Assembly: GCA_041649175.1 (NCBI GenBank)
Contig: JBAZNR010000001.1
Location: 71,461 to 135,460, forward strand
Length of the DNA stretch: 64,000 nucleotides
Source: Candidatus Omnitrophota bacterium
GTDB taxonomy: Bacteria; Omnitrophota; Gorgyraeia; Zapsychrales; JBAZNR01
Direction: 5' to 3'
The notes beneath the pieces are model-generated. The model saw only the letters and a program-made list of their open reading frames with translations. It did no database searches and was not told where the DNA came from. Below, piece after piece: positions 6,910-35,656 of the stretch. A program made the position numbers and the translations under genes. How positions within the stretch are numbered: position 1 is the first letter of the stretch; every line of letters starts with the position of its first letter.

Positions 6910-7641
6910 TTACTTCTTAACCAGTAAAACATCTCGGCGCGTCAGAGAAAATGGCTGACGGATATCTTGGCGACACACTTTTCCTTCACAGCCCAATTTC
7001 ACTGCCTCACAAACGATATATTCGCAATCTAAAGCTAAATTATTATCCGCCGGTAGCTTTTTAACAAATTCCCTAAAGAGCCGGTCATATTCGCCGCGAT
7101 TCGCCTGAAATTGCTTTAGAATCTTTTCTTCCTCAGGTGTTTTTTTCTTTTGCTCAAATTCTTGACGGGCGCGGACATCGGGGATTTCCGCGATCAAAAC
7201 CCGTCCGCCGGGCTTACACACGCGGATCAATTCACTAACACATTGACTGATCTGTTTTTCATTTTCCAGATAATGGATAACCGCATACATAAGAACATGG
7301 TGAAAAGAATTATCTTCAAACGGCAATTGCAAAGCACTTCCCAAATGATATTCAATATTATTGATCTTCTCTAGGCGACAACGCTCTTTTGCCGCTTCGA
7401 TCACTTTTTGGGCCGCATCCAACGCGTGAATAAATTTACAGTGTTCGGAAAGCGGAATGGTCACAACTCCCGTGCCGCAACCGACGTCTAAAACAACATC
7501 ATTTTTCGTTACCGGTAATTTTGAACAAATATCGTCAATGATGATCTTTGATTCCACCGTAACCGGGCGTCCCGAATCATAATAAGCGCCCATCGCGACC
7601 ATTTGATTGAACATTTCAACCGCATCTCTATTGTCGTACAT
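6910..7641 (-). CDS. class I SAM-dependent methyltransferase
   Basis: VLDVGCGTGVVTIPL motif I, plus CKPGGRVLIAEIPD. Confidence 0.7.
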   Translation of the reverse strand: MYDNRDAVEMFNQMVAMGAYYDSGRPVTVESKIIIDDICSKLPVTKNDVVLDVGCGTGVVTIPLSEHCKFIHALDAAQKVIEAAKERCRLEKINNIEYHLGSALQLPFEDNSFHHVLMYAVIHYLENEKQISQCVSELIRVCKPGGRVLIAEIPDVRARQEFEQKKKTPEEEKILKQFQANRGEYDRLFREFVKKLPADNNLALDCEYIVCEAVKLGCEGKVCRQDIRQPFSLTRRDVLLVKK

Positions 7642-8690
7642 TAATACCTTCCTTTAAAATCCCGGATAAAATCATCAAAGATATGATCCGGCAAAGAAGC
7701 ATAAAGCGGAACGGGAACGCACTTTCTGTAATCAGGCTCAAACATATTGCGATTAACGTCAAAATGATAGATGCCGGTAAAGATATTTCGGGCCGACAAC
7801 CATCTTTGAACTTCTTTTAAGAATACCTCGTCTGAAGATAGGATCGGAAAGCACATCGGCGCCATCGTTTCTTCTTCGTCTAGCGGCAGGATGAAAAAAC
7901 GATGGCGCGCATTCTTTAACAGCGTTAAGAAATGTTTATTCTGCCTTTGAAAAACTTGTTGAATTTCTTGTGCACTGCGCGGCAGCCGGCCCCTGACAGT
8001 TGCCAGCGGAAAACTGACCAAAAGTGTTGCGTACCATTTTAATAGATCGATTTGCATGTCCTGATGTTCGCGATCTTTTAAAGGCGTATTGTAATAATTC
8101 AGATATTCCCACTCACCTAATAATGATTCACAACATTCTTTGACTGACGGTGCTCGGCTCAGCTCCTTCTCAATTACGCCAAGCAAAGAAACATCATTCA
8201 CCTTTAAAGCCCCGGCATAAGTCATCTCAAAGATCTTGGATAAAGAAAATATCGCGGTATCGCCGAAAGACCCCAGGGCTCTTCCCTGAGATTTTCCCCA
8301 TAAACCATGCGCGCAGTCTTCAATAATACGGATTTTCTTAGGGCGTAGAATATTTTCGGCTTTTGAATAGTTCTGTGGATAACCCCAGTGATGATAAAAT
8401 AAAACGGCTTTTGTGCGTTCTGTTAAATTTAACGACGGGCTAGCGATCTGATTCACAGAATCTAAGACGCACGTACTCATAAATCGCGGGACCAAAACTT
8501 CATCTTCTCGCCGAAGGCCAAAAGCTTTTAATGATAAAATAATTCCCGCGCGCCCTGCATTTGTTAGGAAAATGTTCTGGGATTGAAAATCATCCTTTAG
8601 CGCTTTAAGAAAGCGACCTTTATCCTGCCTAAAGAAATTTTTCCAATAAGTTACCCAATCAAGCGTCTCATAATAAAGATGTTGTTTCAT
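7641..8690 (-). CDS. DegT/DnrJ/EryC1-like PLP-dependent enzyme (divergent)
   Basis: FLTNAGRAGIILSLKAFGLRREDEVLVPRFMSTCV resembles the DegT N-terminus; FSLSKIF is a candidate PLP-lysine motif. Short (349 aa) and divergent. Confidence 0.45.
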   Translation of the reverse strand: MKQHLYYETLDWVTYWKNFFRQDKGRFLKALKDDFQSQNIFLTNAGRAGIILSLKAFGLRREDEVLVPRFMSTCVLDSVNQIASPSLNLTERTKAVLFYHHWGYPQNYSKAENILRPKKIRIIEDCAHGLWGKSQGRALGSFGDTAIFSLSKIFEMTYAGALKVNDVSLLGVIEKELSRAPSVKECCESLLGEWEYLNYYNTPLKDREHQDMQIDLLKWYATLLVSFPLATVRGRLPRSAQEIQQVFQRQNKHFLTLLKNARHRFFILPLDEEETMAPMCFPILSSDEVFLKEVQRWLSARNIFTGIYHFDVNRNMFEPDYRKCVPVPLYASLPDHIFDDFIRDFKGRY

Positions 8691-9634
8691 ATTTTTGGTC
8701 CTATTTTTTTGACTTGGAAATACGGAACAATACGCCCGCCATAACTTAATTTATAGGCAGCGCGTAGCGGACTATTGACACCAACCAGATCCAATTCTTT
8801 GCATCCCAACTGCTGGTTCAAGAAAACACAACTATCATGAAAATTCTTTGTCCCAACACCAAGCTCTCTAAATTTTAAATCCGTTCCCATGATCAAATGA
8901 TAGGCGCGATGACGATCATAAGCAAAAAAGCTTATCACCGCCGGCTCTTCATTGACGTAAGTGGCCAACAATTTCCCCGCTTTTACTTTTAGAAAATTCT
9001 CACAAGTTGAAATGAGGCTTTTGGCCTCCTCAGGTGAACGCTCAATCCCTTGGCGCTTAAAATTCATTTCGTGCAGATGATCCAACAATGGGATATCATT
9101 CGTTTCCTTTGTCGAAAATTGATACCCTTCATCTGTGCCTTTACGTAATTCGCGAATACGCAATCGTGCATAACCGTCCGTATTTTGAGGCTGCGAAATA
9201 TCTAACAAACTGGTATAACGGGTGGTGATCTGAAAGTATCCTTTTTCCCGTGTATGATAATTCACCCAGTCAAAGGGGCGCATATCAACAATATCCCAGT
9301 GATTAGGAAAATTAACTTCCTTGTAATGCTCAAAAAGATGATTCGCAAACGCCTCCAAAGCCAGGAAAACTGTTTCATTAAGACGGTACGGCGTATGTTC
9401 ACGTAGGTCTTTAAAGATAATTCCGCTCCAAACACCAAAAGGAGCTAATTTGATCCCTTCGTGGCTGTAAGCAAAACCAAACCCGGCAATAGCCTCCTCG
9501 CCTTTGTAGCAAATAAGATAATCCGTCGGAAGGCCGTCGCTGGACAAAGCAAAACTTTTGTTGAATACCGTGCCCTGCGGCGAGGCATCAACAAAGGCAT
9601 CCCAAAATTCTTGCGTGCATTTCTTAATTTCCAT
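8687..9634 (-). CDS. hypothetical; FemAB/GNAT-like acyltransferase fold suspected
   Basis: 315 aa with no strong motif. The two-lobed composition and its position in the glycan cluster suggest an Acetyltransf_6 (FemAB-like) type. Low confidence. Confidence 0.3.
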   Translation of the reverse strand: MEIKKCTQEFWDAFVDASPQGTVFNKSFALSSDGLPTDYLICYKGEEAIAGFGFAYSHEGIKLAPFGVWSGIIFKDLREHTPYRLNETVFLALEAFANHLFEHYKEVNFPNHWDIVDMRPFDWVNYHTREKGYFQITTRYTSLLDISQPQNTDGYARLRIRELRKGTDEGYQFSTKETNDIPLLDHLHEMNFKRQGIERSPEEAKSLISTCENFLKVKAGKLLATYVNEEPAVISFFAYDRHRAYHLIMGTDLKFRELGVGTKNFHDSCVFLNQQLGCKELDLVGVNSPLRAAYKLSYGGRIVPYFQVKKIGPKI

Positions 9635-9654: not shown

Positions 9655-11268
9655 TTAATATTCCGCGCCCTTGCTCAAATAATATGTTTTTCCTGATTCA
9701 ATATATTTGGAGAACTTGGCGCATATGTCTTGATGCTTTTCTTCGCTCCAAGTCTCTAGAAAATATTTAAATATGCTGGTATCCGGATATCCGCTTTTCT
9801 TCATTTCTTCGATATATTGGCGATACGACTTTAAAAAAAGGCTGTCATCGCCCGTGTAATAATAATGCATAAAATAAAATTCGAGGACGCTTTCACGATT
9901 AATGTCTTTTTTAAGCCGCGGCAAGCTTTTAAGAAGATTTTCATATTCCATAACATCTTTCGGATGCCAATTAAAATCATAGGCATAATGAGGATTATAG
10001 CTGGCATTGATAACCTGAACGCCCAAAGCCGCTAACTCGTGGCCCACCGAACCATAAGCCGTTAAAACGAAATTGATCCCTTCTTTGATCAATTGAATAT
10101 GAGATGTTGCCGCCGGGATCATGGTGATCTTTGGATACTGAGCAATGATCTCTTGAATAATTTCTTCTGTTCCCGGCAAAGGATCCGGATGCATTTTAAT
10201 GTACCAGTCATAATCCGTTTGCTCCGATATCTTTCCTAAGAAATGCAGCCATTCGTAAAAATCCACAAAGAACATCTCTCCGTAGGCTTGAGGATTATCA
10301 TAAAAACAATGATTACAGACTAAAACCTTGATCTTGTCGCTTTGGCGCAAAACCGCTGTGTTATTTTCCGAAGATTGAAACGCCGATTTCGTTGAATACG
10401 GCATATCAACGCCAACTTCTCCTTTAAAACGACGTTCTAACTGCCTTCGGGCGATCTCTAAGCCCTGAACTTGTTCGGCCACCGATAGCTTTCTGAATTT
10501 TTTGGGATAATCTCTAAAAAGCGGGTCATAGATGGTATACGGTTTTTTAGCCAGACAAATGCTTTTGATATTAGGCAAATAAACGGGAATATTTTTCTGA
10601 TAGCTAAGCTTGCAGAGAATGTTTTCATAGATATAAGCATCATGTGTTGCGATGACCGCTTTGACATTGTTCTCTTTTAAATAATCCTGCCAAAAGATAA
10701 GGATCTCAACCGCTCTTTCGATCGTTTCAAAAAGTTTTGGATCTTTAAGATCAACGGTTGGCTTATTGAAAGCGCGCAGATATGTTTCATAAATATCAAC
10801 GCCCATCCAAATTCCGTCTACACGAATATCGTAAACATCTTTTTTTGTTTTTATACTCCCTAGAATGCCTTCTAAAATTTCTTTCTTGCGCAATGCTTGC
10901 GAACGATCGAGCGTTGTGACAATGAACTTTCGGATATTGAACGAACGGTAGATCTGATCCCTGGCCCAATAAAAAAGACTGCCCGGAAAACTCTTTCGGG
11001 TGGAAGAAAAAGAAACGATTGCGGCATTATGTTTTTTAGCAAGAATATTAACAAAATAACTTTGACTGATCCACACCGACGGCATTCCGCTGGAATAATA
11101 AAGCAAAATGGTCCCTTGAGGGTCTTCCCTATTCCAGTTTGCCCATACTTTACGGTTATGCTTAAGAAATTCCTGGCAATATTCATCCGGAAAAGCATTT
11201 TTAAGCACGCGATGAACTTTTGCTTTAAATAAGGCCAACTGTTGATTGAGATTCTTTAAAACAACCAT
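9655..11268 (-). CDS. hypothetical GT-B protein with HP motif (Capsule_synth/KpsS-like); candidate CMP-nonulosonate transferase
   Basis: 537 aa. VLVCNHCFYDNPQ...WYIKMHPD resembles the HP motif of KpsC/KpsS/TagF/sialyltransferase enzymes. Confidence 0.35.
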   Translation of the reverse strand: MVVLKNLNQQLALFKAKVHRVLKNAFPDEYCQEFLKHNRKVWANWNREDPQGTILLYYSSGMPSVWISQSYFVNILAKKHNAAIVSFSSTRKSFPGSLFYWARDQIYRSFNIRKFIVTTLDRSQALRKKEILEGILGSIKTKKDVYDIRVDGIWMGVDIYETYLRAFNKPTVDLKDPKLFETIERAVEILIFWQDYLKENNVKAVIATHDAYIYENILCKLSYQKNIPVYLPNIKSICLAKKPYTIYDPLFRDYPKKFRKLSVAEQVQGLEIARRQLERRFKGEVGVDMPYSTKSAFQSSENNTAVLRQSDKIKVLVCNHCFYDNPQAYGEMFFVDFYEWLHFLGKISEQTDYDWYIKMHPDPLPGTEEIIQEIIAQYPKITMIPAATSHIQLIKEGINFVLTAYGSVGHELAALGVQVINASYNPHYAYDFNWHPKDVMEYENLLKSLPRLKKDINRESVLEFYFMHYYYTGDDSLFLKSYRQYIEEMKKSGYPDTSIFKYFLETWSEEKHQDICAKFSKYIESGKTYYLSKGAEY

Positions 11269-11270
11269 TT

Positions 11271-12605
11271 TTATCCTTTAACGTTCTTTGCCCGATAACG
11301 CTTTGAAAGACTTTTTCTGCAATCCCATACTTTTTCAAACGCAGTAGCCACATCGCTTAGGTCTTTGCGACTCATCGGCGAGCGCATCAATTCATGAATA
11401 AAAAGTTCCGAATTGTGCACGCGCTCAGCCGTCGGACAAATCCCTTGTCTATAACTCACTTTTTTTGCTGATGCGGATGAGTTAAAAGGAAAACCTTTCT
11501 TTCCAAAAGCAATTCTTTTCTGATACATCGGCTGAAGATAAAGCGGTTTGACATAGCCGCAGCTTATCAAAACCCCTTCTTGTTCGCGCAACTGAGTGCA
11601 GGCAAGTTCCGCTTTCACTGCTTCGATAAAAATATCGCGGCCAAAACCGGCGATCTCTTCTTTAAATTTAAAAGGATGGACATAATACGCATGCGTACAT
11701 CCCGGCCTCATTTTTGGCGCAACGATACAGGGAATTTGAGAAAGCCTGTGCTCCAAATAACGGCAATTTTCTTGCCTCTCCTTAAGCAACTTTTTTAGCT
11801 TCTTTAATTGGCAACGCGTGATAGCCGCCTCAATTTCCGTCATACGAAAATTAAATCCCACCATATTGGAAATATCTTTGACTTTTTTATCAGCTACAAC
11901 CGCTTCCGCGTGATTACGGATAAGCTGCGTTCTTTCTGCCAGCTGAGCATTATTAGTAACAACAATCCCGCCTTCTCCGCAATGAATATGCTTATGATAA
12001 TTGAGCGAATAAACACCGATATCGGCTAAGGTTCCGGCGTACTTTTTCTTATATAAAGCGCCGGGTGCTTGCGCGCAATCCTCAATAACAAGCAAATGAT
12101 GTTTACGTGCGATTTTATTGATCGCCTCGGCATCGTAAGGCAAGCCAAACAGATCAACAACGATGATCGCCTTTGTTCTTGGTGTAATTTTTTGTTCAAC
12201 CGATTTTGGATCCAGACAAAAATAATCTTCTTCGATATCCGCAAAAACAGGTATTGCGCCATAGACAAGAGCCGCTGTTGCCGAAGCGCTCATGGTAAAT
12301 GGCGACACGATCACTTCATCGCCCGGACCAATACCCGCTGCTCCAACCGCCGCATACAATCCTGATGTGCAGGAATTAACTGCTACGGCATATCGAGCGC
12401 CGAAATAATTCGCCCACTCTTTTTCTAAAGCTTGGATTTGCGGCCCGCCGTAAAAATCTTTGTGCCAACACCCTAAAAACCGCGAAAGAATTCCGGAATC
12501 CAAAACATGGGCTACCGCACGTTTTTCTTCTGAGCCGATAACGCGATAAGCCGGAAAAGGTTTTTTGCGGACAGGTTTACCGCCGAAGATGGCTAATGTT
12601 TCCAT
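11271..12605 (-). CDS. DegT/DnrJ/EryC1/StrS-family sugar aminotransferase
   Basis: 444 aa; ...VNSCTSGLYAAVGAAGIGPGDEVIV...SLNYHKHI (PLP Lys region). Confidence 0.8.
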   Translation of the reverse strand: METLAIFGGKPVRKKPFPAYRVIGSEEKRAVAHVLDSGILSRFLGCWHKDFYGGPQIQALEKEWANYFGARYAVAVNSCTSGLYAAVGAAGIGPGDEVIVSPFTMSASATAALVYGAIPVFADIEEDYFCLDPKSVEQKITPRTKAIIVVDLFGLPYDAEAINKIARKHHLLVIEDCAQAPGALYKKKYAGTLADIGVYSLNYHKHIHCGEGGIVVTNNAQLAERTQLIRNHAEAVVADKKVKDISNMVGFNFRMTEIEAAITRCQLKKLKKLLKERQENCRYLEHRLSQIPCIVAPKMRPGCTHAYYVHPFKFKEEIAGFGRDIFIEAVKAELACTQLREQEGVLISCGYVKPLYLQPMYQKRIAFGKKGFPFNSSASAKKVSYRQGICPTAERVHNSELFIHELMRSPMSRKDLSDVATAFEKVWDCRKSLSKRYRAKNVKG

Positions 12606-13740
12606 GACGTTCTCCTATAAGCTTTTTAATAACCTGTTCAATATTTTGGACAGCATTCTCTAAGAAAGAAAAATCAACTTTATCAAACTGACCTTCACTA
12701 AAAAATGCGGATAAGCGCATTTTGAGATCATCAGCTGAAAGAACTCTTTTGACCTTATCCATTCTGCTTAAAATAAAGGGATCTTGCTGTTTTTGACCGA
12801 TCTGAACGCTTAGAAAAGGCTTTTGAGCAATGGCTGCCTCCAAAAGCAACATGGATGAAGCTCCGAGCAGAATATCCGCTCCACAAATTAGCTCTTCCGA
12901 GGAAGACCCGCGCTCTTTGACCACCTTAATAAAATCATTTTTCATGCCCGCGATCATGTCATCCAAAATATTTTCGTTGTCTTTAGGATGAAGACGGAAA
13001 ACAAGGCAAAAATTTTCTTGAGGAAATTCTTTGTGGATAGCGCATAAGGCATCAAAAGTGTTTTTCAGCAATGAAGCTTCGTCATATCCCCAGTGAGCTC
13101 GGCCTTTATCCCCATACATCGTTCGAACAGCCTCTGAAACAACAACCACAACGTGACAGCCCGAAGCTATGCCAAGTTTCTTCCGGTAATTTTTGTCATC
13201 TGTACTTACACGGGTTAGCCTTTGCCGCACTTCAGATAAATGCGGTTGGCCCGTGATCTCTAAAACATCCGAAGAAAATCCCTCTTTGATCATTTCTTTT
13301 TTCGCAAAATCATCCATGATACAAATTTTATCGGGAAGGCATTTCTTTACGCCGTCTTTTGCATCAACAGTGTCTGCGGCAGAAGAAAATCGTAAGCAAT
13401 AACTATTCCAATAATCGAGAATAGCAACGGAAGGAATTCCGGCCTCAGAGGCTGCCTTCCATAAATATTTCTCCGCTAGATCATCCTCACTTGTTCCCGT
13501 AACAATGCAGACAGGATTAATGCTGTGAACAAACTCGCGAATATGTTCATAGCTGATATTTTCTTTCAGCAAATCCTTAATATCCTTAAAATCTATTCCG
13601 GCTTGGGCGTAACGTTGGCACGCTTTATCTTTTCCAAATAGCAAAATACCATATTCTTTCTTCGCGATCATATGATGCGCGAGGGGAATAATGCAGTTAG
13701 CCCCGCCGGGGTCTCTTGAGAAAAATAATATCTTATCCAT
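12577..13740 (-). CDS. hypothetical GT-B fold protein with HP motif
   Basis: 387 aa; FRLHPKD motif plus a Rossmann-like N-terminus MDKILFFSRDPGGANCIIPL. Function not assignable from sequence alone. Confidence 0.3.
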   Translation of the reverse strand: MDKILFFSRDPGGANCIIPLAHHMIAKKEYGILLFGKDKACQRYAQAGIDFKDIKDLLKENISYEHIREFVHSINPVCIVTGTSEDDLAEKYLWKAASEAGIPSVAILDYWNSYCLRFSSAADTVDAKDGVKKCLPDKICIMDDFAKKEMIKEGFSSDVLEITGQPHLSEVRQRLTRVSTDDKNYRKKLGIASGCHVVVVVSEAVRTMYGDKGRAHWGYDEASLLKNTFDALCAIHKEFPQENFCLVFRLHPKDNENILDDMIAGMKNDFIKVVKERGSSSEELICGADILLGASSMLLLEAAIAQKPFLSVQIGQKQQDPFILSRMDKVKRVLSADDLKMRLSAFFSEGQFDKVDFSFLENAVQNIEQVIKKLIGERHGNISHLRR

Positions 13741-14710
13741 GATTAGCCTCTTGATACATTTTCAAAGCTTGCGCGCATAAACGCTGACTATGGACCCCTT
13801 CTGACAAAGAGCACAAAGAAACTGCCCGCGCCTCGGCCAGATCAGCAACGTGATCAAGAACAAATCCAAAGGCGGCGCCAAAGTTGATCTTTGTTTTCTT
13901 CTGACGCGCCCACTCTTGTTTGCCTTTCCATAATAAGCTTGGCTTCAAAGCAAACTCTTCAATGGACATCTTGATTTCGCTAATGCGAATTAATCTTTTC
14001 TCGAATAAAAGTTCTATTTCAAAAATCGAGCCGAATTTCTGATCAGCTTCCAGTAAATTAAAAACTCCGGACGGTTTAAATCCGACCGCAAACGTCAGCG
14101 TCGGATCTTCTTTAGAAAAATCAACACGTCCTGACGAAACCGAGATAACATGCCCTTCCCCTAAGAAAAACCGCACCAGGTCAACGGCATGCGAACCGTT
14201 ATTCAAAACTCCTTTTGAGTAATAACAATGCCCGGATATAAATGCTCCAAATTCTCCCTTAGAGATCTTTTCCTTGAGGCTTCTAAATTCCGGCATAAAG
14301 CGACGCGTGTAATGAATCAATATCCGATCATCCCAATTCTTGAACTGATCGGCTAATTTTTGTGATTCCTTTAAGTCGTTTGTCACGGGTTTTTCCAAAA
14401 GAATAACTTTAGGACTTTTCTCGATCACTTGCCTTAAGACTGCGGCATGTTCTTTTGTGGAAACACAAATAGAAACAACATCATACGTGAGGTCTCTCAT
14501 GGCATCATTAACCGAAGAAAAAACAGGAACCTTCCACTTCTTCGCCGCTGCCGCCGATTTGAGCGGATCAACATCAACAACTCCGCCAAGTGTAAAATTC
14601 GGGTGAGAAACATAGGCTTGCGCATGGCTAAGAATAGATTTCGTACCTGGTTTTCCGAAAACCGATCCAATGTTGCCGCAACCGACCACTAAGGCCTTAT
14701 ATTTTTTCAT
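13733..14710 (-). CDS. Gfo/Idh/MocA-family NAD(P)-dependent oxidoreductase
   Basis: MKKYKALVVGCGNIGSVFG Rossmann N-terminus and an EKP motif (VILLEKPV). Confidence 0.75.
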   Translation of the reverse strand: MKKYKALVVGCGNIGSVFGKPGTKSILSHAQAYVSHPNFTLGGVVDVDPLKSAAAAKKWKVPVFSSVNDAMRDLTYDVVSICVSTKEHAAVLRQVIEKSPKVILLEKPVTNDLKESQKLADQFKNWDDRILIHYTRRFMPEFRSLKEKISKGEFGAFISGHCYYSKGVLNNGSHAVDLVRFFLGEGHVISVSSGRVDFSKEDPTLTFAVGFKPSGVFNLLEADQKFGSIFEIELLFEKRLIRISEIKMSIEEFALKPSLLWKGKQEWARQKKTKINFGAAFGFVLDHVADLAEARAVSLCSLSEGVHSQRLCAQALKMYQEANHG

Positions 14711-15486
14711 CGTATGGATTTTTGTTGAACATGATTGTTTATTTGCGCTAATTCCGGAGATTTTGAGAATAATTCCAGAATATCTTCGAGACTAAAATTA
14801 GGATCTTTCGAATAAAGGCGGCGTACAACCTCATTTAAAAGACGCCAGTCATCCGCGGTATCTAAGGTTAATCGGATATTTTTTTCAGATTCTTTAAGGC
14901 CGCTTTCGATATTTTTAATGTTAAAGCGGCCTGGTTTTTCATAAAAATAAAGACTGACATGCTCGCGGTCTTTAGGATCAGACGTTTTTTGTTCAATTTC
15001 CCGCAACTTTCTCGCTGGAAAAACCTGAACGTCCATTCCTAAAGGATATGACTGCTGCACGCAATTAGAAACATAATCGTATTCGCCTTGCAGATAAACT
15101 TCAATTGTCTTATCAACAATACGATGATCGATTAGCGGGCAATCTCCGGTAACTTCCACAATAATATCAACATTATTTTTCTCGGCTGCCTCAACAACTC
15201 GCAATAAAACATCATCCTCGCTGCCGCGATAACATTTAACTCCGATTTTTTTAGCCAGTAATTCTATAGGATCGTCGGTTTTGTTTATAGTCGCGGCAAT
15301 AATAATTCCATTTAGATATTTCGAATATTTTAAACGCTCAACTAATAATTCTAAAGCAGGCTTATCCCCCAGCAACTTTAATACCTTGCCCGGTAATCGG
15401 CTTGATGTCATACGCGCTTCAATGACCGCGAAAATATTTTTCTTTATGGGTTGTTTCATGTTTTTTATCGATTCACCATCATCCAC
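14707..15486 (-). CDS. acylneuraminate cytidylyltransferase-family protein (CMP-nonulosonate synthetase / SpsF-like)
   Basis: IFAVIEARMTSSRLPGKVLK..LGDKPALELLVERL. Second cytidylyltransferase in the locus. Confidence 0.75.
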   Translation of the reverse strand: MDDGESIKNMKQPIKKNIFAVIEARMTSSRLPGKVLKLLGDKPALELLVERLKYSKYLNGIIIAATINKTDDPIELLAKKIGVKCYRGSEDDVLLRVVEAAEKNNVDIIVEVTGDCPLIDHRIVDKTIEVYLQGEYDYVSNCVQQSYPLGMDVQVFPARKLREIEQKTSDPKDREHVSLYFYEKPGRFNIKNIESGLKESEKNIRLTLDTADDWRLLNEVVRRLYSKDPNFSLEDILELFSKSPELAQINNHVQQKSIR

Positions 15487-16493
15487 TGAAGCGGCGTACC
15501 CGCTGCTATATCACACGTGGCTTTACGTCCTAAAACTTGCTTTAAGTGTTTTGGCGCAAGTCCATGCGAAGGACGTATCGAGCGGACATTTTCTTCAGAG
15601 AATTTTTCGTTTCTTTTGACATCTTTAACCACGAATAAAGAGCGCCTAAAAGTAACACTACTTTTTTCATCCGGCGTTAATCCATAATGAACTTCTCCTA
15701 TCGAAGATTCGGCCAGGCGAACATCTTCAACAAGTTTCTTAAGTTCCGCGGGTTCGATAGAGAAAAAACTATCCGGCGTTGACAATGTCCTGGAAAGCGT
15801 AAAATGTTTTTCAATGAAACACGCGCCTAAAGCGACCGCAGCCACGGGAACTTGCGTGCCCAGCGTATGGTCAGATAAACCTACCGGGCAATGGAATTTT
15901 CTCGACAAATCATAAATTGTTTTTAAATTCATCTCCTTCGGGCGAGCCGGATAACTACTCACACATTTCAGTAAGAGAATATCTTTGGTTCCGGATTTTC
16001 TTGCCGTGTCAACCGCATCACGGATCTCGCCAACAGTTGCCATTCCCGTTGATAGAATGAGCAGCTTTTTTGTTTTGGCCGCATATTCAATAAGCGGCAG
16101 ATCAACCAACTCAAAGGAAGCGATCTTATGGAAAGGAACTCGAAGGCCCTGTAAAAGGTCCACACCGGGCTTATCAAAAGCTGTAGCAAAGAAAATAATT
16201 CCCTCTTCATCCGCAACTTTCTTTAACTGTTTAAACCACGCAAAAGGCGTGTGCGCTTGTTTATAAAGCGAATAGAGCGTTTGTCCGCCCCATTTAGGAT
16301 GACGAATTTGGAAATATTTATTTTCACAATCAATGGTTAAAGAATCAGCCGAATACAATTGAAATTTAACGGCATCCGCCCCGCAGGCTTTAGCTTTTCT
16401 GATAAGATCGATAGCGCGTTTCAAACTGCCACCATGATTCGCGGAAATTTCCGCCGCAATAAAAACTTTTTTTGCCCATAAAAGTGTTTTCAT
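15465..16493 (-). CDS. pseI: NeuB-family nonulosonate synthase (pseudaminic acid synthase)
   Basis: SANHGGSLKRAIDLIRKAKACGADAVKFQ TIM-barrel motif plus a C-terminal SAF domain. Confidence 0.85.
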   Translation of the reverse strand: MKTLLWAKKVFIAAEISANHGGSLKRAIDLIRKAKACGADAVKFQLYSADSLTIDCENKYFQIRHPKWGGQTLYSLYKQAHTPFAWFKQLKKVADEEGIIFFATAFDKPGVDLLQGLRVPFHKIASFELVDLPLIEYAAKTKKLLILSTGMATVGEIRDAVDTARKSGTKDILLLKCVSSYPARPKEMNLKTIYDLSRKFHCPVGLSDHTLGTQVPVAAVALGACFIEKHFTLSRTLSTPDSFFSIEPAELKKLVEDVRLAESSIGEVHYGLTPDEKSSVTFRRSLFVVKDVKRNEKFSEENVRSIRPSHGLAPKHLKQVLGRKATCDIAAGTPLQWMMVNR

Positions 16494-16506
16494 TAAACAC
16501 CTGTCC

Positions 16507-17949
16507 TTATTTTTTGAGAGTAAATTGCATGCAAATCTTTTTCTTCAGATCTTCTCGGGATTTGATCCTCTCAAACCCAAGACTTTTAAAAAATTCTTGT
16601 GACGATGTATTGTCGCTTTTAATATAAGCAATGATCTTATCGATACGCTTTTGGTATAAAAAGCGAATGCCATCTTCAAAGATCTTTTTGCCGATGCCAC
16701 ACTGCTGGAATAAAGGATCTACACTAATACTGACAACGGCTTTTTTCTTTTGAATGCAAAATCGAATTTGCCCCAATAAGTCATCCTTCGCATAAGCAAC
16801 TAAAAAAAGTGTTTTTGGATCTGACAAGGTCTTTGCGAACCATTTTTGATGTTCCGGCCAGGTGATCTTGCGAGGTGCAAAAGAACCTTGACGGATCATA
16901 GGCTGATTTGACAGCTCGAAAATAGATTTGATATCTTTTTCTTCTACATGCCGAATTTTAATATGTTGTTCGACATAAGATTTCACGCATGCCGCTACGA
17001 TCCTTTTCGCTCCTTGCCCGTCAACCGTTTGTGGCCCTCTTTGCGCGGCTAAGCGGCGAAATGTAAGTGAAGATACTTTATTTAAGCCCAGATCTATCTG
17101 GCTTAAAAAATTCTTATCGTTCGCTTTCCCGACATAAAAAAAGCACTTTGTTTTCGCCCATGCCTTTGCATGTCGTTCTTGATTGTCCGCCACAACAACG
17201 ATAACAGCCGCACAACCACAGCGCGCCAATTCATTAAGGGTTTGTCCTCCGGCGGAAACAGCAAAATCCACATCCTGCATAATTCTTGACATTTGTTTGG
17301 CATTGGACTCAAAAACAAATTTAATATTTTTACTCTTTTGTTTTAAAATGTCTTTTTTGTGAATGAAGTTCTTGCCAATAATCACAATTTTCTGCAATAA
17401 AGGGTATTTTCTGTCAAAAATCCCTAATATCTTCGACGTCATATTTGCCTCATCCGTACCGCCAAACGTAATTAGGATTTTCTTTGCCTTTGCCCGTACT
17501 TTTTTTTCAGGAACATCCCAAAACTCCCGGCGCAAAGAAACATACTGAGGGCCTAACAAAGACTCGAAATGCTTAAATCCTCCATAATTCAATTGATCGG
17601 CATTGATCGCACCGTTAATAATAATTCCCTTGGGATATTTAATCCTGTTGTTATCGTCAAAATATAAAGACACAGCACTATTATTTTGTATTTTCTGAAA
17701 AATCTTTTTAGAAGCTAAGTACGAATCAACGATCGCAATATCGCACCTTGGTTGTTGTCTTTGAAAGGACATCCAGTTTTTATAATCGCCACCGTATACA
17801 TCAAGTTGGCGGGAAATATTCCGGTCGCCATAAACTAACAGTTGGCATTGAACGCCTCTTTCGCGAAAGGCTTGCGCCAAACCGGCACAACGAGACAAAT
17901 GCCCCATACCAATACCTCGCCCTGCCTCTGTAAAAATCGTGATTTTCAT
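16507..17949 (-). CDS. pseG/pseH: fused PseG (UDP-2,4-diacetamido-2,4,6-trideoxy-beta-L-altropyranose hydrolase) and PseH (GNAT N-acetyltransferase)
   Basis: The N-terminus MKITIFTEAGRGIGMGHLSRC is PseG/GT28-like. The C-terminal roughly 150 aa is GNAT-like (VAYAKDDLLGQIRF...QQCGIGKKIF). Start at MKITIF, which abuts the upstream stop; the ORF track extends to 17979. Confidence 0.7.
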   Translation of the reverse strand: MKITIFTEAGRGIGMGHLSRCAGLAQAFRERGVQCQLLVYGDRNISRQLDVYGGDYKNWMSFQRQQPRCDIAIVDSYLASKKIFQKIQNNSAVSLYFDDNNRIKYPKGIIINGAINADQLNYGGFKHFESLLGPQYVSLRREFWDVPEKKVRAKAKKILITFGGTDEANMTSKILGIFDRKYPLLQKIVIIGKNFIHKKDILKQKSKNIKFVFESNAKQMSRIMQDVDFAVSAGGQTLNELARCGCAAVIVVVADNQERHAKAWAKTKCFFYVGKANDKNFLSQIDLGLNKVSSLTFRRLAAQRGPQTVDGQGAKRIVAACVKSYVEQHIKIRHVEEKDIKSIFELSNQPMIRQGSFAPRKITWPEHQKWFAKTLSDPKTLFLVAYAKDDLLGQIRFCIQKKKAVVSISVDPLFQQCGIGKKIFEDGIRFLYQKRIDKIIAYIKSDNTSSQEFFKSLGFERIKSREDLKKKICMQFTLKK

Positions 17950-17950
17950 A

Positions 17951-18685
17951 TCAAATTGCCTTTTGCCGAACCGCTTCATTAATCTTGATCAGATCAGGGT
18001 TATCTTTAAGCAACGCAACAATATCGTTTAGAAAAAACTGTTCCTGGCCCCGTTTGAGCATCATTTGATAAATCTCTCTTACGAAACGCAAGTCATCCAC
18101 CTCATCAACAGTCCAGCGAAAATGAGATAGATCCTCATTGTTTTTCACGCTTTGCATTTTAAATAATTTGGGATGCTCATAAACAAAACTGGTCACATGT
18201 TCCCGATGATGCGGTTTTTGGGATTCTTTCCAGGATTTTTCTAAAGCATCCATCGAGATAACTTCCGTATCTAGGCCTCGGGGATAACTCCTCTCGATAA
18301 CATTGCTCGCGCCGGATGCATGAGAAACGTTTTTTTGATACGCGGCAATAACTTTGTCCACCACCTGTGGGTCAATGAGCGGACAATCCGAAGTGATTCG
18401 AACAACCGTCTGCGCCTTATATCGTAAAGCCGCTTGGTAATATCGGCCTAAAACATCCATTTCACTTCCCCGAAAACAAAGCGTATTTTGATTTTGGCAA
18501 AATTGTTCAATAAGATCATCTTCTGTTCTTTCCGTCGTTGCGACAACAATGTCTTCTATTAAAGAACATAATTTTAAGCGCGAAATAACTCTTCCTAACA
18601 TCGGCATTCCCAAAATATCCATCATGGCTTTACCGGGAAGCCTGGTTGAACCCATTCGAGCTTGAATGATAGCAATTGTTCTCAA
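17951..18685 (-). CDS. pseF: CMP-pseudaminic acid synthetase-like cytidylyltransferase
   Basis: MRTIAIIQARMGSTRLPGKAMMDILGMPML. Confidence 0.75.
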   Translation of the reverse strand: MRTIAIIQARMGSTRLPGKAMMDILGMPMLGRVISRLKLCSLIEDIVVATTERTEDDLIEQFCQNQNTLCFRGSEMDVLGRYYQAALRYKAQTVVRITSDCPLIDPQVVDKVIAAYQKNVSHASGASNVIERSYPRGLDTEVISMDALEKSWKESQKPHHREHVTSFVYEHPKLFKMQSVKNNEDLSHFRWTVDEVDDLRFVREIYQMMLKRGQEQFFLNDIVALLKDNPDLIKINEAVRQKAI

Positions 18686-19440
18686 ATCCGCACCTTGATC
18701 TCGTGATCAGTTAAATATTTTTTCACTTCCAACGGCGTTGTTTGCGTAAAGTGATACATGCTTGCCGCAGCCGCAGCCGAAGCTTTGCCTTCCTTAAGAA
18801 CATCAAAAACATGTTCCGGACTTCCTGCTCCTCCGGAGGCAATGACCGGAATAGAGACAGCATCGCTCACTTTTCGAGTCAATTCAACATCATAACCAAG
18901 CATAGTGCCGTCGCGATCAACAGATGTTAATAAGATCTCCCCCGCGCCTAAGTCTTGCATTTTCTTGGAAAATTCCACCGGGTCAAGCCCTGTTGTTTTA
19001 TTTCCTGACAATACAGCCGTTTCATATGTTCCCTTTGATGTTTTTTTGACATCAACGGAAACAATGATACACTGCGAGCCAAATTCTCTTGCGGATTCTT
19101 TAATAAGATCCGGCGTTAGAAATGCCGCCGTATTAATGGCTACTTTGTCAGCTCCGCAAGCCAAGAGGCGGCGCACATCTTCGACCGATCTTATTCCGCC
19201 GCCAACAGTCAAAGGCATAAAACATTCATCGGCAATATCATCAATGAGATGAAAATCAGGCATGCGATTTTGCTGCGACGCCGTAATATCTAAAAAGATG
19301 AGCTCGTCAACTTCCCTCACACAATACACCTTTACCGACTGCAGAACGTAACCCACGCAACGCCAGCTGTCAAAGCTCACACCTTTCACTAAAACAGTAT
19401 CTCGATATAAAAGTGTTGGAATAATTCTTGTTTTGATCAT
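18682..19440 (-). CDS. imidazole glycerol phosphate synthase cyclase-subunit homologue (HisF/WbuZ-like)
   Basis: IPTLLYRD...VGGGIRS... (beta/alpha)8 HisF motifs. Confidence 0.8.
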   Translation of the reverse strand: MIKTRIIPTLLYRDTVLVKGVSFDSWRCVGYVLQSVKVYCVREVDELIFLDITASQQNRMPDFHLIDDIADECFMPLTVGGGIRSVEDVRRLLACGADKVAINTAAFLTPDLIKESAREFGSQCIIVSVDVKKTSKGTYETAVLSGNKTTGLDPVEFSKKMQDLGAGEILLTSVDRDGTMLGYDVELTRKVSDAVSIPVIASGGAGSPEHVFDVLKEGKASAAAAASMYHFTQTTPLEVKKYLTDHEIKVRI

Positions 19441-19461
19441 TTGTTTTAGCTCCTGAAGCGG

Positions 19462-20085
19462 CTAACACATGGCAATAAAATTGCGTATTAAATTAAGCCC
19501 GACGGATAAACTTTTTTCCGGATGAAATTGCACGCCGAACACATTATCTTTTTGAACAGCAGAGACAAAATCATTTCCGTAACTCGTCGTTGCTAAAACA
19601 TCATCCCTTTCCCGGCAAACAACATGAAAGCTGTGGACAAAATAAAAATCTTTTCCGCTGGCAATGCCATTCCACAAAGAAGATGCCTTCGCGTGATGAA
19701 CTTCATTCCAACCCACATGAGGGATCTTTAGTGATTTTGACGAGAGCTCAAAGCGTTTTACATCCGCATTGATCCATCCAAGCCCTTTTGTCCGCCCGCC
19801 TTCTAAACCCAATGTCGCGATCAACTGCATCCCTAAACAAATCCCCAAAAATGGTATTTTATTATTTAAAACCTGCTCGTTTAAGATTTGATCGAGCCCT
19901 TTGGCGCGCAAATTATTCATTCCCGAAACAAAAGACCCCACCCCCGGCAAAACGATTCCCTGGCAAGTCGTAAAGTCTTCCGGCTTTGCCGTTATTTGCG
20001 GCTTGGCTCCGCCTTCTTCGATGGCGCGCGCAACCGAATCAATATTGCCCATTCCATAATCAACAATAACAATTCTTTTCATCAA
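19462..20085 (-). CDS. glutamine amidotransferase HisH/WbuY-like
   Basis: IVIVDYGMGN...GICLGMQ (catalytic Cys)...HPE (His/Glu). Confidence 0.8.
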   Translation of the reverse strand: MMKRIVIVDYGMGNIDSVARAIEEGGAKPQITAKPEDFTTCQGIVLPGVGSFVSGMNNLRAKGLDQILNEQVLNNKIPFLGICLGMQLIATLGLEGGRTKGLGWINADVKRFELSSKSLKIPHVGWNEVHHAKASSLWNGIASGKDFYFVHSFHVVCRERDDVLATTSYGNDFVSAVQKDNVFGVQFHPEKSLSVGLNLIRNFIAMC

Positions 20086-21240: not shown

Positions 21241-21244
21241 AGCG

Positions 21245-22402: not shown

Positions 22403-23375
22403 TTTTGATCACCTTTTGCAGATCTTTAATGGTTAGCCACTTTTCGTTTTTGTCGCTGCAATACACAAAGTTTTCCGGAACAAAAGGAAATTTATCGTAA
22501 ACTTTGTGGACATCTTCATTCTCGTAAAATTGCGGCATGATCACATAAGAGCCTTTAAAAATCTTTGTTTTTCTCGCCTCATCTTCCGAGACAAGCGTTT
22601 CGTGGATCTTTTCTCCGGGGCGGATACCGATTTTCTTGAACGTACATTTTGGCTCAATAGCCAAAGCCAGATCCGTGACCTTCATCGACGGGATCATCGG
22701 GACAAAGGTCTCACCGCCAACCGTATTTTCTAAAGCCTTCAAAACCAGATCAACGCCTTCTTCTAAGGTGATCCAGAACCGCGTCATTTTTTCATCCGTA
22801 ATAGGAAATTCTTTAATACCCTGCTTTTTAAAATTCAAAAATAGCGGGATGACACTTCCGCGCGAACCGACAACATTGCCATAACGGACAACGGAAAACT
22901 TCACCCGCCCGCCCGCATAGGCGTTAGCCGCAACAAAGGTTTTCTCGGCAACTAATTTCGTCGCGCCATAAAGATTGACCGGATTAACAGCCTTATCGGT
23001 CGAAAGCGCGATGACTTTTTTTACACCGACATCAATGGAAGCTTCCACGATATTGTCAGCACCCAAGATATTTGTTTTAACGGCTTCCATCGGATTATAT
23101 TCAAGTGCCGGCACTTGCTTTAAAGCCGCGGCATGAATTACATAATCCACACCTTCAAAGGCGCGAAATAAACGGCTTCGGTCTCGAATATCTCCGAGAA
23201 AATAACGAATGGGGTATTTTTTCTCCGGAAATTCTTTCGACATTTCACTTTGCTTAAATTCATCCCGGCTAAAAACAATAAGCTTCTTTGGTTTAAACTT
23301 CTTAAATATAACCTGCGTAAATTTCCGGCCGAATGACCCTGTCCCACCGGTTACTAAGATCGTCTTATCGTTCAT
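22389..23375 (-). CDS. pseB: UDP-N-acetylglucosamine 4,6-dehydratase (inverting)
   Basis: MNDKTILVTGGTGSFGRKF...LGDIRD...YGATKLVAEK. Confidence 0.85.
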   Translation of the reverse strand: MNDKTILVTGGTGSFGRKFTQVIFKKFKPKKLIVFSRDEFKQSEMSKEFPEKKYPIRYFLGDIRDRSRLFRAFEGVDYVIHAAALKQVPALEYNPMEAVKTNILGADNIVEASIDVGVKKVIALSTDKAVNPVNLYGATKLVAEKTFVAANAYAGGRVKFSVVRYGNVVGSRGSVIPLFLNFKKQGIKEFPITDEKMTRFWITLEEGVDLVLKALENTVGGETFVPMIPSMKVTDLALAIEPKCTFKKIGIRPGEKIHETLVSEDEARKTKIFKGSYVIMPQFYENEDVHKVYDKFPFVPENFVYCSDKNEKWLTIKDLQKVIKSDSL

Positions 23376-35653: not shown

Positions 35654-35656
35654 CGC

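Follow-up and report, generated by a model that had tools for sequence, protein, structure and literature searches.

The pseudaminic acid (Pse) locus of a Candidatus Omnitrophota MAG encodes two GT-B proteins, here called ProtA and ProtB (deposited as hypothetical proteins WC676_00395 and WC676_00405), that had been proposed as Pse transferases. Sequence comparison and structure modelling support this assignment well for ProtA, which appears to be a KpsS-like nonulosonate transferase, whereas for ProtB it is plausible but contested. A joint explanation, in which ProtA is a KpsC/KpsS-type nonulosonate transferase, ProtB a second transferase, and the genes around ProtB a cassette for modified Pse, has in our estimate an even chance of being correct. 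Within the window (the whole 64,000-nucleotide stretch analysed) both reading frames were recovered with exactly the boundaries and lengths given in a preliminary description of this DNA, among the following genes.

6910–7641, minus strand: methyltransferase, from profile matches
7641–8690, minus strand: PLP_IMCC1989-type PLP enzyme, from profile matches
8687–9634, minus strand: Acetyltransf_6 (FemAB-like GNAT), from profile matches
9655–11268, minus strand: ProtA, 537 aa, GT-B, distantly placed in the KpsC/KpsS (Capsule_synth) superfamily, candidate for a retaining CMP-nonulosonate transferase
11271–12605, minus strand: DegT-family aminotransferase, 444 aa, cassette member (Pfam DegT, 3.6e-87)
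12577–13740, minus strand: ProtB, 387 aa, HP-type GT-B, candidate second (inverting-type) nonulosonate transferase
13733–14710, minus strand: Gfo/Idh/MocA oxidoreductase, cassette member (Pfam GFO_IDH_MocA, 3.6e-17)
14707–15486, minus strand: second cytidylyltransferase (CTP_transf_3), head of the cassette (Pfam, 9.1e-28)
15465–23375, minus strand: the whole Pse biosynthesis gene block
15465–16493, minus strand: PseI (NCBIfam PseI, 447.8 bits, above cutoff)
16507–17979, minus strand: PseG-PseH fusion (PseG, 142 bits)
17951–18685, minus strand: first cytidylyltransferase
18682–21240, minus strand: HisF/HisH/WbuX amidotransferase set (WbuX, 339 bits)
21245–22402, minus strand: PseC (NCBIfam, 521 bits, above cutoff)
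22389–23375, minus strand: PseB (NCBIfam, 484 bits, above cutoff)
23407–25251, minus strand: MsbA/PglK-like ABC exporter, head of the gene string (NCBIfam matches)

The locus makes CMP-pseudaminic acid, and very probably a further-modified Pse derivative as well. The preliminary description had taken plain CMP-Pse as the donor; we depart from it here, as the donor is probably the further-modified derivative rather than plain CMP-Pse5Ac7Ac. The two cytidylyltransferases are 36% identical to each other. Between 1 and 51.5 kb of the window the GTs are GT4, GT2, GT9 and GT28-like only, with no Capsule_synth, polyST or Maf, nor any other sialyltransferase-type GT, and the earlier remark that no recognisable sialyltransferase-type GT lies nearby is true for this part; the stretch from 51.5 to 64 kb was searched with profiles A1, A2 and A3 only.

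Both proteins fall under every Pfam and NCBIfam threshold, in keeping with the earlier observation that they lack a strong family match. ProtA gave no Pfam match, staying below threshold for the Capsule_synth model itself, and a single NCBIfam match at chance level (E 0.09); its 81 aligned relatives had no meaningful match to either collection. The family is large and widespread, its homologues making up about 3,550 clusters when grouped at 50% identity, and has no Pfam or NCBIfam model. Judged by sequence profiles, ProtA is distantly related to the KpsC/KpsS (Capsule_synth) superfamily, by way of a bridging family of 560 aa, A3, that is itself uncharacterised. The ProtA profile (A1) aligned with A3 over 348 columns in hhalign (99.1%, E 8.7e-19), and HMMER recovers the link both ways, A1 finding proteins of a Babeliales locus (L085) at 1e-12 and 4.5e-9 and the A3 HMM finding ProtA at E 2.6e-15 as the only ORF matched in the window. 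Pfam Capsule_synth is matched above threshold by 17 of 22 A3 members, and KpsC provides the sole PDB hits of the A3 profile. The AF2 model of ProtA (pLDDT 94.2) has a GT-B fold; within its top 50 Foldseek hits the best TM-score belongs to KpsC 6mgb (TMt 0.47, rmsd 6.8), and TagF, TarL and UDP-GlcNAc 2-epimerases are also found. The C (donor) domain is far better conserved than the N domain (0.62 versus 0.43), as expected of a GT with a common donor.

The motifs quoted in the preliminary description, NHCFYDNPQ and WYIKMHPD in ProtA and FRLHPKD in ProtB, are all present. Those of ProtA, counted over 79 homologues with identity down to 28%, are as follows.

10297–10311, minus strand: H320-C-F-Y-D324 (HxxxD), at the place of the QXXXD motif (H320 in 77/79, D/E324 in 79/79)
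10183–10197, minus strand: K358-M-H360-P361-D362, HP motif, putative CMP-phosphate binding (K358 in 79/79, H360 in 77/79, P361 in 75/79)
10036–10053, minus strand: G406-S-V-G-H-E411, GT-B nucleotide-binding helix motif (G406, S/T407 and E411 each in 79/79)

HxxxD, KxHP and G(S/T)xxxE are thus all near-invariant. The first lines up with an NxxxD that is invariant in the Capsule_synth-like A3, the HP with the HP of A3 (hhalign), and the G406–E411 segment, through A3, with 'TS.fGfE' of KpsC. A bare HP dipeptide is within chance (ProtA holds two, at residues 360 and 435, against about 0.5 per protein by our own estimate), but the flagged HP of each protein is conserved among its orthologues far above chance.

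In retaining Kdo/Pse transferases, QXXXD supplies a carboxylate-binding residue and the nucleophilic Asp (PMC12887879). The Pse transferase of Acinetobacter baumannii, KpsS1, is indeed KpsS-like, as had been claimed; it is a retaining Pse5Ac7Ac transferase and the founder of GT118 (PMC12887879). KpsS and KpsC (GT107, Pfam Capsule_synth) are retaining beta-Kdo transferases; WbbB (GT99) and KrkA (GT140) are likewise among the known systems closest to ProtA. Like KpsS1, KpsS and KpsC, ProtA is a GT-B protein adjoining CMP-ulosonic-acid synthesis genes, the likeness to KpsS1 being one of fold and gene setting; like KpsS and KpsC, it is homologous to a Capsule_synth-bearing family. It differs from the latter two in matching no Capsule_synth model, in carrying His instead of Gln in the motif, and in adding an N-terminal helical hairpin and a C-terminal helical extension of ~90 residues. 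The KpsS/KpsC likeness originally drawn for both proteins therefore stands for ProtA, through the profile-profile link to A3 and the HxxxD at the QXXXD position, and falls for ProtB, which has no QXXXD-type motif, a fold nearest UDP-sugar 2-epimerases, and profile hits of the TagB/BFO_1060/LIC12162 type. Maf (flagellin nonulosonate transferases) and FlmG (Caulobacter, TPR + GT-B) transfer Pse from CMP-Pse, the same job as proposed here; unlike these, neither ProtA nor ProtB has a Maf/DUF115 domain or TPR repeats, and their homologues extend to organisms not known to bear flagella, Pelagibacteraceae for example.

In many different phyla, the ProtA and ProtB genes form an integral part of Pse/nonulosonate clusters. 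NeuB (nonulosonate synthase) or CTP_transf_3 lies within 10 kb in 37 of 45 fully flanked ProtA loci, and some loci with either gene nearby are without the cassette. ProtB has a fixed place in a conserved cassette of cytidylyltransferase, Gfo oxidoreductase, ProtB, KdnA-like aminotransferase and N-acyltransferase; at L085 the position after it is held by two Capsule_synth proteins instead. In the window the ProtB reading frame overlaps the DegT gene by 29 nt and the Gfo gene by 8 nt, and 2 nt separate the DegT gene end from the ProtA start. The cassette DegT retains about 50% identity across phyla; its closest solved structure is an uncharacterised DegT-family chain (8gyh, E 2.6e-67), and the next-closest include the Kdo8N transaminase KdnA (5k8b, 7e-52) and inosose aminotransferases. 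Among PDB structures, the Gfo oxidoreductase comes nearest to DgpA and inositol 2-dehydrogenase (sugar/inositol dehydrogenases).

These comparisons establish gene linkage, fold, homology and conserved motifs; for donor, mechanism and acceptor we infer the following scheme. The Gfo oxidoreductase would oxidise a nonulosonate hydroxyl, the KdnA-like DegT would transaminate the product, the new amine would be acylated (by the FemAB-like acetyltransferase here, by a small GNAT in other loci), and the second cytidylyltransferase would activate the result. By analogy with retaining ulosonic-acid transferases, ProtA would be a cytoplasmic GT-B that installs the nonulosonate by double displacement: K358 and H360-P361 would hold the CMP phosphate, G406-S407 and E411 the nucleotide, H320 would stand in for the Gln to which the sugar carboxylate binds, and D324 would attack C2, giving a covalent adduct of sugar and enzyme that the acceptor resolves. 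Less certainly, ProtB would most likely be a dedicated inverting-type transferase for the cassette product, without the nucleophile motif of ProtA, in which D143 may serve as base and H251 as acid.

Every Pfam/NCBIfam hit of ProtB is sub-threshold: Epimerase_2 scores 18 bits (cutoff 30.6), Glyphos_transf 15.7 (22.1) and NF046086 28.7 (200). Its AF2 model (pLDDT 94.0) has, like that of ProtA, the GT-B fold originally proposed. Conservation was counted in 120 sequences, among which S/T296 is also invariant or nearly so.

12985–12996, minus strand: ProtB R249-L-H251-P252, HP motif (H251 and P252 in 120/120, R/K249 in 118/120)
13312–13314, minus strand: ProtB D143, candidate catalytic base at the end of an N-domain strand (120/120; secondary structure from the AF2 model)
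13414–13416, minus strand: ProtB D109, near-invariant (119/120)
13390–13392, minus strand: ProtB R117, near-invariant (118/120)

In its C-terminal domain ProtB is similar to polysialyltransferases, to LIC12162/TagF-like proteins and to the Pse/Leg transferase family of Tannerella. Tanf_01245, TFUB4_00887 and BFO_1060 of Tannerella forsythia (NF046086) were shown genetically to be Pse- and Leg-derivative transferases; ProtB residues 227–381 match their C-terminal, HP-bearing part, as do 73 of 89 relatives (best E 6e-16), and TIGR04396 is matched by 74 of 89. ProtB shares with them a gene directly beside nonulosonate synthesis genes and a resemblance to TagB; unlike them, it stays far below the family cutoff, its N-terminal domain is unmatched, and of their D/E-D/E-G motif it has just D143-D/E144, the Gly missing. 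TagF/TagB (Glyphos_transf), polysialyltransferases (GT38) and LIC12162-type proteins, HP-type GT-Bs with CMP/CDP donors, are weakly matched by ProtB relatives (polyST in 15/89), always sub-threshold, and ProtB lacks their extra domains. In hhalign it reached 97.4% to a LIC12162/Glyphos_transf-like protein and 81% to A3.

The main rival for ProtB, which we think unlikely though worth serious consideration, is that it processes a nucleotide sugar within the cassette, as a GT-B resembling epimerases or hydrolases and comparable to WbpI, NeuC/LegG or PseG. It would then supply or convert an intermediate for oxidation, transamination and acylation, leaving ProtA as the sole nonulosonate transferase. 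The closest Foldseek matches of ProtB are UDP-GlcNAc 2-epimerases (E 1e-15, TM 0.6–0.7), the top 50 are all UDP-sugar 2-epimerases, WbpI-type included, and the top TM-scores go to UDP-2,3-diacetamido-2,3-dideoxy-glucuronate 2-epimerase (8sxw, TMt 0.71). The ProtB profile matches the 4neq epimerase (E 4e-4), Epimerase_2 is weakly matched by 65 of 89 relatives, and the UDP-GlcNAc 2-epimerases (Epimerase_2, including the hydrolysing NeuC/LegG and the WbpI type) carry HP at the equivalent topological position; both ProtA and ProtB nonetheless fall below that family's threshold. The N and C domains of ProtB are equally conserved, and it is found, with overlapping reading frames, in 26 of the 28 loci where the 440-aa DegT and the Gfo oxidoreductase occur together, which makes a biosynthetic role conceivable; yet the nearest ProtA locus, L001/L020, lacks ProtB although it carries both oxidoreductase and aminotransferase. 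PseC, PseG and PseH homologues were not found at L085 by phmmer with the window's proteins, so that the cassette DegT, GNAT and ProtB could form the core pathway there, but most loci, the window included, already own a bona fide PseG, and a GT-B enzyme is superfluous to a scheme of oxidation, transamination and acylation. In the M. jannaschii epimerase a Thr is aligned with the invariant D143, at a position that we take to be non-catalytic in 2-epimerases, going by the active site of the E. coli enzyme; D143 and R117 presumably stand outside the epimerase catalytic set, and in a by-eye motif comparison the place of the first catalytic Asp of epimerases is apparently taken by a near-invariant Thr (T83). 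The NF046086 matches among ProtB relatives are also stronger and commoner (73) than those to NeuC (10) or PseG (3), which argues for the transferase reading.

That ProtA uses a different donor, either CMP-Kdo or another sugar (such as a C-methylated deoxyhexose) added onto the nonulosonate, seems to us improbable. Those Capsule_synth enzymes that have been characterised transfer Kdo (PMC12887879), but neither cytidylyltransferase reached the KdsB threshold in the NCBIfam search. The remaining 8 of the 45 fully flanked loci have no NeuB or CTP_transf_3 within 10 kb, and in 26 of the 45 C-methyl-deoxyhexose genes (NTP-transferase, 4,6-dehydratase, RmlC-like, C-methyltransferase) lie directly downstream of ProtA, which together make it conceivable that ProtA uses another donor or glycosylates the nonulosonate. 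Pfam/NCBIfam annotation shows no such genes next to ProtA in the window, however, Lachnospiraceae and Pelagibacteraceae homologues adjoin NeuB and CTP_transf_3 without them, and the pair of HP and (Q/H)xxxD has been described to date for CMP-ulosonic-acid donors only (PMC12887879). Far less probable still is that either or both proteins are TagF-like phosphotransferases, for which a CDP compound would donate a phospho-alditol or a phospho-sugar instead of a glycosyl group. The Foldseek hits of ProtA include TagF and TarL, Glyphos_transf is weakly matched by 27 of 89 ProtB relatives, and ProtB is homologous to proteins with faint hits to that model; these matches are all sub-threshold, though, the two cytidylyltransferases each belong to CTP_transf_3, the ulosonic acid type, and Pfam/NCBIfam annotation found no CDP-glycerol/CDP-ribitol synthesis genes (TagD/TarI/TarJ type) in the locus.

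In favour of ProtB as a transferase, the Pfam table for one further locus (L086) has within 10 kb no additional GT of sialyltransferase or Capsule_synth type, although an unannotated 331-aa protein and one GT4 are found there. The Acetyltransf_6, PLP enzyme and methyltransferase trio (6910–9634) is kept beside ProtA homologues, and is also present in L001 and L003.

The gene for ProtA, a 537-aa protein encoded at 9655-11268, and that for ProtB, a 387-aa protein encoded at 12577-13740, lie in this Candidatus Omnitrophota MAG within one tightly packed gene string that also holds the pseudaminic acid (Pse) cluster, all on the minus strand; the reading frames and motif strings reported in the preliminary description match the sequence exactly. 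The string opens with an exporter, followed by PseB, PseC, a WbuX/HisH/HisF amidotransferase set, a cytidylyltransferase, a PseG-PseH fusion and PseI, and continues with a second cytidylyltransferase, a Gfo/Idh/MocA oxidoreductase, ProtB, a 444-aa DegT aminotransferase and ProtA. Downstream of ProtA are a FemAB-like Acetyltransf_6 protein, a PLP_IMCC1989-type enzyme, methyltransferases, a UDP-GlcNAc 2-epimerase and three GT4 glycosyltransferases. The ProtB gene overlaps its upstream neighbour by 8 nt and its downstream neighbour by 29 nt, and ProtA starts 2 nt past the end of the aminotransferase gene.

Selected genes of the string
23407-25251, minus strand, MsbA/PglK-like ABC exporter, first gene of the string
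17951-18685, minus strand, CTP_transf_3 cytidylyltransferase
16507-17979, minus strand, PseG-PseH fusion of 490 aa, with an N-terminal PseG-like UDP-sugar hydrolase (142 bits to TIGR03590) and a C-terminal PseH-like GNAT acetyltransferase
14707-15486, minus strand, CTP_transf_3 cytidylyltransferase, paralogous to the one at 17951-18685 (36% identity)

The Pse locus has a single NeuB-type synthase against these two cytidylyltransferases, which is consistent with the activation of two different nonulosonates.

ProtA and 81 aligned relatives have no meaningful match in Pfam or NCBIfam: PF05159 (Capsule_synth) matches none of them at E<=0.05, and PF02350 matches three of the 81 relatives, all at E values of at least 0.0026. 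A sequence-profile search of the PDB with the ProtA alignment likewise returned no match, and neither protein had a tblastn match among PLSDB plasmids. Scanned exhaustively with HMMER, 1.84 billion cluster representatives yielded 3,550 at E<=0.001 and 1,077 at E<=1e-30, a family of approximately 3,550 clusters at 50% identity that ranges from SAR11 and Lachnospiraceae to Methanoperedens.

The relationship of ProtA to described glycosyltransferases emerged through a bridging family. A Babeliales locus with a ProtB homologue encodes, downstream of its ProtB-containing cassette, two ~560-aa proteins with Pfam Capsule_synth matches. The ProtA profile matched one of these at 93%; compared with an alignment of the family to which that protein belongs (A3), it matched at 99.1% (E 8.7e-19), and the 348 aligned columns cover both Rossmann domains. 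Capsule_synth matches were found in 17 of 22 A3 members (34.6 bits for the query protein, against a cutoff of 20), and the PDB matches of A3 are KpsC structures only. Plain HMMER reproduced the link in both directions, and the A3 profile, run over the ORFs of the window, matched ProtA alone. These profile comparisons place ProtA as a predicted member of the KpsC/KpsS (Capsule_synth) superfamily, through a link that is indirect, via A3.

Structure prediction gave a ProtA model with a pLDDT of 94.2 (AlphaFold2). Among its best 50 Foldseek matches, whole-chain GT-B hits were many but weak (rmsd 14-19 Å), to epimerases, TagF, TarL, a polysialyltransferase and OGT/SPY; the one compact match, to KpsC (6mgb; TMt 0.47, rmsd 6.8 Å, 294 columns), had the best TM-score. 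An unrelated fold, named beforehand as a refutation of the transferase proposal, did not arise for either protein, as models and structure search gave a GT-B fold for both. Fold and HP motif alone do not decide function, because HP is common to epimerases and to CMP/CDP-dependent GT-B transferases. The Maf domain (MAF_flag10/DUF115) and the TPR plus GT-B architecture of FlmG are absent from both proteins in Pfam searches, and identification of either as Maf or FlmG was ruled out for lack of DUF115 or TPR. Profile comparison of ProtA with ProtB was not significant, although their HP motifs align, and ProtA showed no relation to the 625-aa and 628-aa proteins of two comparison loci (L084 and L088, respectively).

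In retaining ulosonic-acid transferases, the QXXXD motif comprises a carboxylate-binding Gln and a nucleophilic Asp. ProtA H320-C-F-Y-D324 aligns with an invariant N-x-x-x-D of A3, K-M-H360-P with its K-x-H-P, and G406-S-V-G-H-E411 with the 'TS.fGfE' segment of KpsC. Among ProtA homologues, H320 is found in 77/79 and D/E324 in 79/79, such that the acidic residue of QXXXD is retained and its Gln replaced by His. Retaining Kdo transferases of GT99, GT107 and GT140 have three conserved elements, and KpsS1 (GT118), the Acinetobacter Pse5Ac7Ac transferase, is a related retaining enzyme (PMC12887879). The HP feature of these families (GT99/107/118/140) is present in ProtA, in register with its counterpart in the Capsule_synth-like family. 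Conservation of HP among orthologues, on which the original proposal depended, was borne out for both proteins, with H360 in 77/79 and P361 in 75/79 ProtA homologues and H251 and P252 in 120/120 ProtB sequences. In the N domain of ProtA, Y160 (65/79) and an acidic residue at 161 (64/79) might correspond to the YE general base of KpsS1 and KrkA, a likeness that is one of resemblance only.

We then considered genomic context, using 80 species-level loci with ProtA homologues, 45 of them fully flanked (at least 8 kb on both sides). The loci span Methanoperedens, Dehalococcoidia, Scalindua, Bdellovibrionota, many Proteobacteria, Pelagibacteraceae, Lachnospiraceae, Treponema and Selenomonadales. 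Of the 45 fully flanked loci, 37 place a gene for a NeuB-type synthase or for a CTP_transf_3 protein no more than 10 kb from the ProtA homologue, and 21 contain a ProtB homologue. A recurrent block has the order NeuB, cytidylyltransferase, Gfo, DegT (~440 aa), GNAT or Acetyltransf_6, ProtB and ProtA, usually with complete Pse genes upstream. Its carriers include cultured bacteria such as Propionivibrio dicarboxylicus DSM 5885 (L024), Devosia alba RY10 (L039) and Pusillimonas minor (L032). ProtA also adjoins NeuB and cytidylyltransferase genes in Lachnospiraceae and Pelagibacteraceae loci that are free of the block's oxidoreductase-aminotransferase cassette; ProtA therefore tracks nonulosonate synthesis in general. 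A C-methyl-deoxyhexose gene set, absent from the window, occurs in 26/45 fully flanked loci, where ProtA is followed by genes for an NTP_transferase, a 4,6-dehydratase, an RmlC-like protein, a Methyltransf_13/14 C-methyltransferase and a CmcI-type O-methyltransferase. Such a set would make a C-methylated, O-methylated deoxyhexose and may point to one glycan motif that recurs across phyla.

ProtB is bound more closely to the cassette, being present in 26 of the 28 loci that have both the Gfo oxidoreductase and the 440-aa DegT. Five independent ProtB-centred loci keep the fixed order cytidylyltransferase, Gfo, ProtB, DegT; a small GNAT directly follows in four and lies a few genes further downstream in the fifth, and a WbuX-like amidotransferase comes next in most, after which the glycosyltransferases differ. 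In one Pelagibacteraceae locus with Gfo and DegT (L064, 8936-9848), the ProtB profile matches a pair of short neighbouring ORFs (37 and 21 bits), which looks like a split or decayed gene.

The ProtB model (AlphaFold2, pLDDT 94.0) superposes on UDP-sugar 2-epimerases with E values to 3e-15 and TM 0.6-0.7. All Pfam and NCBIfam matches of ProtB fall below threshold: Epimerase_2 (PF02350, UDP-GlcNAc 2-epimerase) at 18.0 bits against 30.6, with a similar fold nevertheless; Glyphos_transf (PF04464, TagF/TagB) at 15.7 against 22.1; the BFO_1060 glycosyltransferase family NF046086 at 28.7 against 200, in the C-terminal domain only; and TIGR04396. ProtB is therefore a relative of these families and not a member. 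Among 89 ProtB relatives, 74 match TIGR04396, 73 NF046086 (E<=0.01, best 6e-16), 65 Epimerase_2, 27 Glyphos_transf (weakly) and 15 a polysialyltransferase family. BFO_1060 was aligned with Tanf_01245 and TFUB4_00887, the genetically demonstrated transferases of Pse and Leg derivatives in Tannerella forsythia; both resemble TagB and have an HP motif (Tomek et al., PMC5420450). The ProtB C domain is also homologous (97.4%) to a 628-aa protein of a Collierbacteria nonulosonate locus that itself has weak LIC12162 and faint Glyphos_transf matches in Pfam; the relation to A3 is more distant (81%), and none was found to the 'u329' family that often follows ProtA.

Across 120 ProtB sequences, H251, P252 and D143 are invariant and D109, R117, R/K249 and S/T296 nearly so. 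No QXXXD-like motif follows the first strand of the C domain in this set; the consensus there, F-A-S-E-P, resembles the Y-A-P-T segment of TagF-type enzymes. Compared with the D/E-D/E-G, HP and S-S/T motifs of bacterial sialyltransferases (GT38/52/80), ProtB has the HP, S/T296 in 120/120 and an invariant D143 followed by D/E144 in 91/120, but lacks the Gly. In a motif-level comparison of ProtB with the acidic triad of 2-epimerases (E. coli D95/E117/E131), T83 falls at the expected site of the first Asp and D109 at that of the Glu.

The cassette around ProtB comprises five to six genes and was found at 11271-15486 of the window, in five further loci (L084-L088) and in approximately 26 of the L004-L083 loci, in Omnitrophota, Babeliales, Collierbacteria, Proteobacteria and others. 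It contains a CTP_transf_3 protein, a Gfo/Idh/MocA oxidoreductase, ProtB, a DegT protein of 435-448 aa and a small GNAT or Acetyltransf_6 protein, often followed by a WbuX-like amidotransferase. The closest solved relatives of the 444-aa DegT are an uncharacterised DegT (8gyh), then the Kdo8N transaminase KdnA (5k8b, E 7e-52) and inosose aminotransferases, the latter two being enzymes whose substrate we take to be a free ulosonic acid or a cyclitol, as opposed to an NDP-4-keto sugar; those of the oxidoreductase are DgpA and inositol 2-dehydrogenase. These similarities suggest that the cassette adds an extra amino group to Pse. By analogy with KdnB/KdnA in Kdo8N synthesis, the most likely scheme has four steps: a hydroxyl of Pse would be oxidised, the resulting carbonyl transaminated, the new amine acylated, and the product activated by the cassette's own cytidylyltransferase. 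The literature on TIGR04396/LIC12162, 8GYH and Gfo-type enzymes in nonulosonate pathways yielded nothing usable, and the Acinetobacter aci/ela/lga papers do not clarify the role of the oxidoreductase. In several phyla a trio of methyltransferase, PLP_IMCC1989-type PLP enzyme and FemAB-like Acetyltransf_6 (window 6910-9634; L001 7239-9985; L003 7091-9871) directly adjoins ProtA homologues, standing in for the small GNAT found elsewhere; the group that it attaches may be an aminoacyl or an acyl other than acetyl.

The preliminary description had proposed both proteins as candidate CMP-Pse transferases, a reading that is supported in part. For ProtA it gained support: the protein is probably a glycosyltransferase with a CMP-nonulosonate donor, of the retaining KpsS/KpsC type, a candidate role on which Capsule_synth homology, the motif pair, stronger conservation of the donor than of the acceptor domain (0.62 versus 0.43), gene linkage and the lack of any other candidate besides ProtA and ProtB in 1-51.5 kb of the window converge. 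The A3 bridge is itself uncharacterised, however, His stands in place of Gln, and many loci have the C-methyl-deoxyhexose pathway; on these grounds ProtA might handle another donor, or the nonulosonate might be its acceptor.

ProtB is left between two readings. That it is a transferase is a candidate view to which we give somewhat less than even chances; that it is a nucleotide-sugar-processing enzyme appears somewhat less likely still. The second reading is favoured by the fold, which is nearest to 2-epimerases (the WbpI type among them), by equal conservation of the two domains, and by an almost obligatory link to the oxidoreductase and aminotransferase. The first is favoured by four points: true PseG genes coexist with ProtB, the closest relative of the window locus (L001/L020) keeps those two enzymes and lacks ProtB, the strongest profile matches are to a proven nonulosonate transferase family, and the invariant D143, whose counterpart in the M. 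jannaschii epimerase is a Thr, lies off what we take to be the catalytic positions of 2-epimerases. Substitution for PseG was rejected, as true PseG genes coexist with ProtB in most loci, the window included; so was a hydrolysing epimerase supplying NeuB with a 2,3-diacetamido sugar, a chemistry that is unworkable because the hexose C3 ends up in the nonulosonate as C6, where the ring oxygen sits. We infer that a dedicated transferase is preferable to a biosynthetic enzyme mainly because none of the four cassette steps needs a GT-B enzyme.

Only a handful of enzymes have been described that place pseudaminic, legionaminic and related acids on bacterial surfaces (Maf, FlmG, KpsS1 and the Tannerella enzyme), and most genomes making these sugars have no identifiable transferase. 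KpsS-like Pse transferases are already established as an idea (GT118). The novelty lies in a putative sister family, large and unmodelled, whose motif is the variant HxxxD, and in a conserved cassette suggestive of a Pse derivative not yet described. One may tentatively combine these into a fuller scenario, on balance doubtful, in which ProtA founds a new and very widespread glycosyltransferase family acting by KpsC-like double displacement with HxxxD in place of QXXXD, and the neighbouring cassette makes and installs a Pse derivative with a third amino group, ProtB being its dedicated transferase. Were the ProtA family such a transferase, a function could be assigned to unannotated genes in their thousands, from environmental, gut and marine bacteria as well as some archaea, and the variant nucleophile motif would mark a new GT family; the ProtA idea would be directly testable by the D-to-C trapping that has served for KpsC, WbbB and KrkA. 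An undescribed Pse modification around ProtB would bear on glycan structure prediction and on antibody or phage-receptor work.

The window also holds a second glycan cluster at 34021-47412, with an MGDG-synthase-like GT28, a HAD phosphatase, two GT2, two DegT aminotransferases, a GT9 heptosyltransferase-like protein, a GT4, an NTP_transferase, a GHMP kinase, a B12-binding radical SAM enzyme and two SDR epimerases. A short E1_dh fragment (47414-48025) follows, then two adjacent ~540-aa proteins (48294-51559), each with an N-terminal GDSL/SGNH lipase-like domain and TPR repeats. Between the two glycan clusters, two tandem galactose-1-phosphate uridylyltransferase-like genes lie beside GAPDH at 29120-31162.
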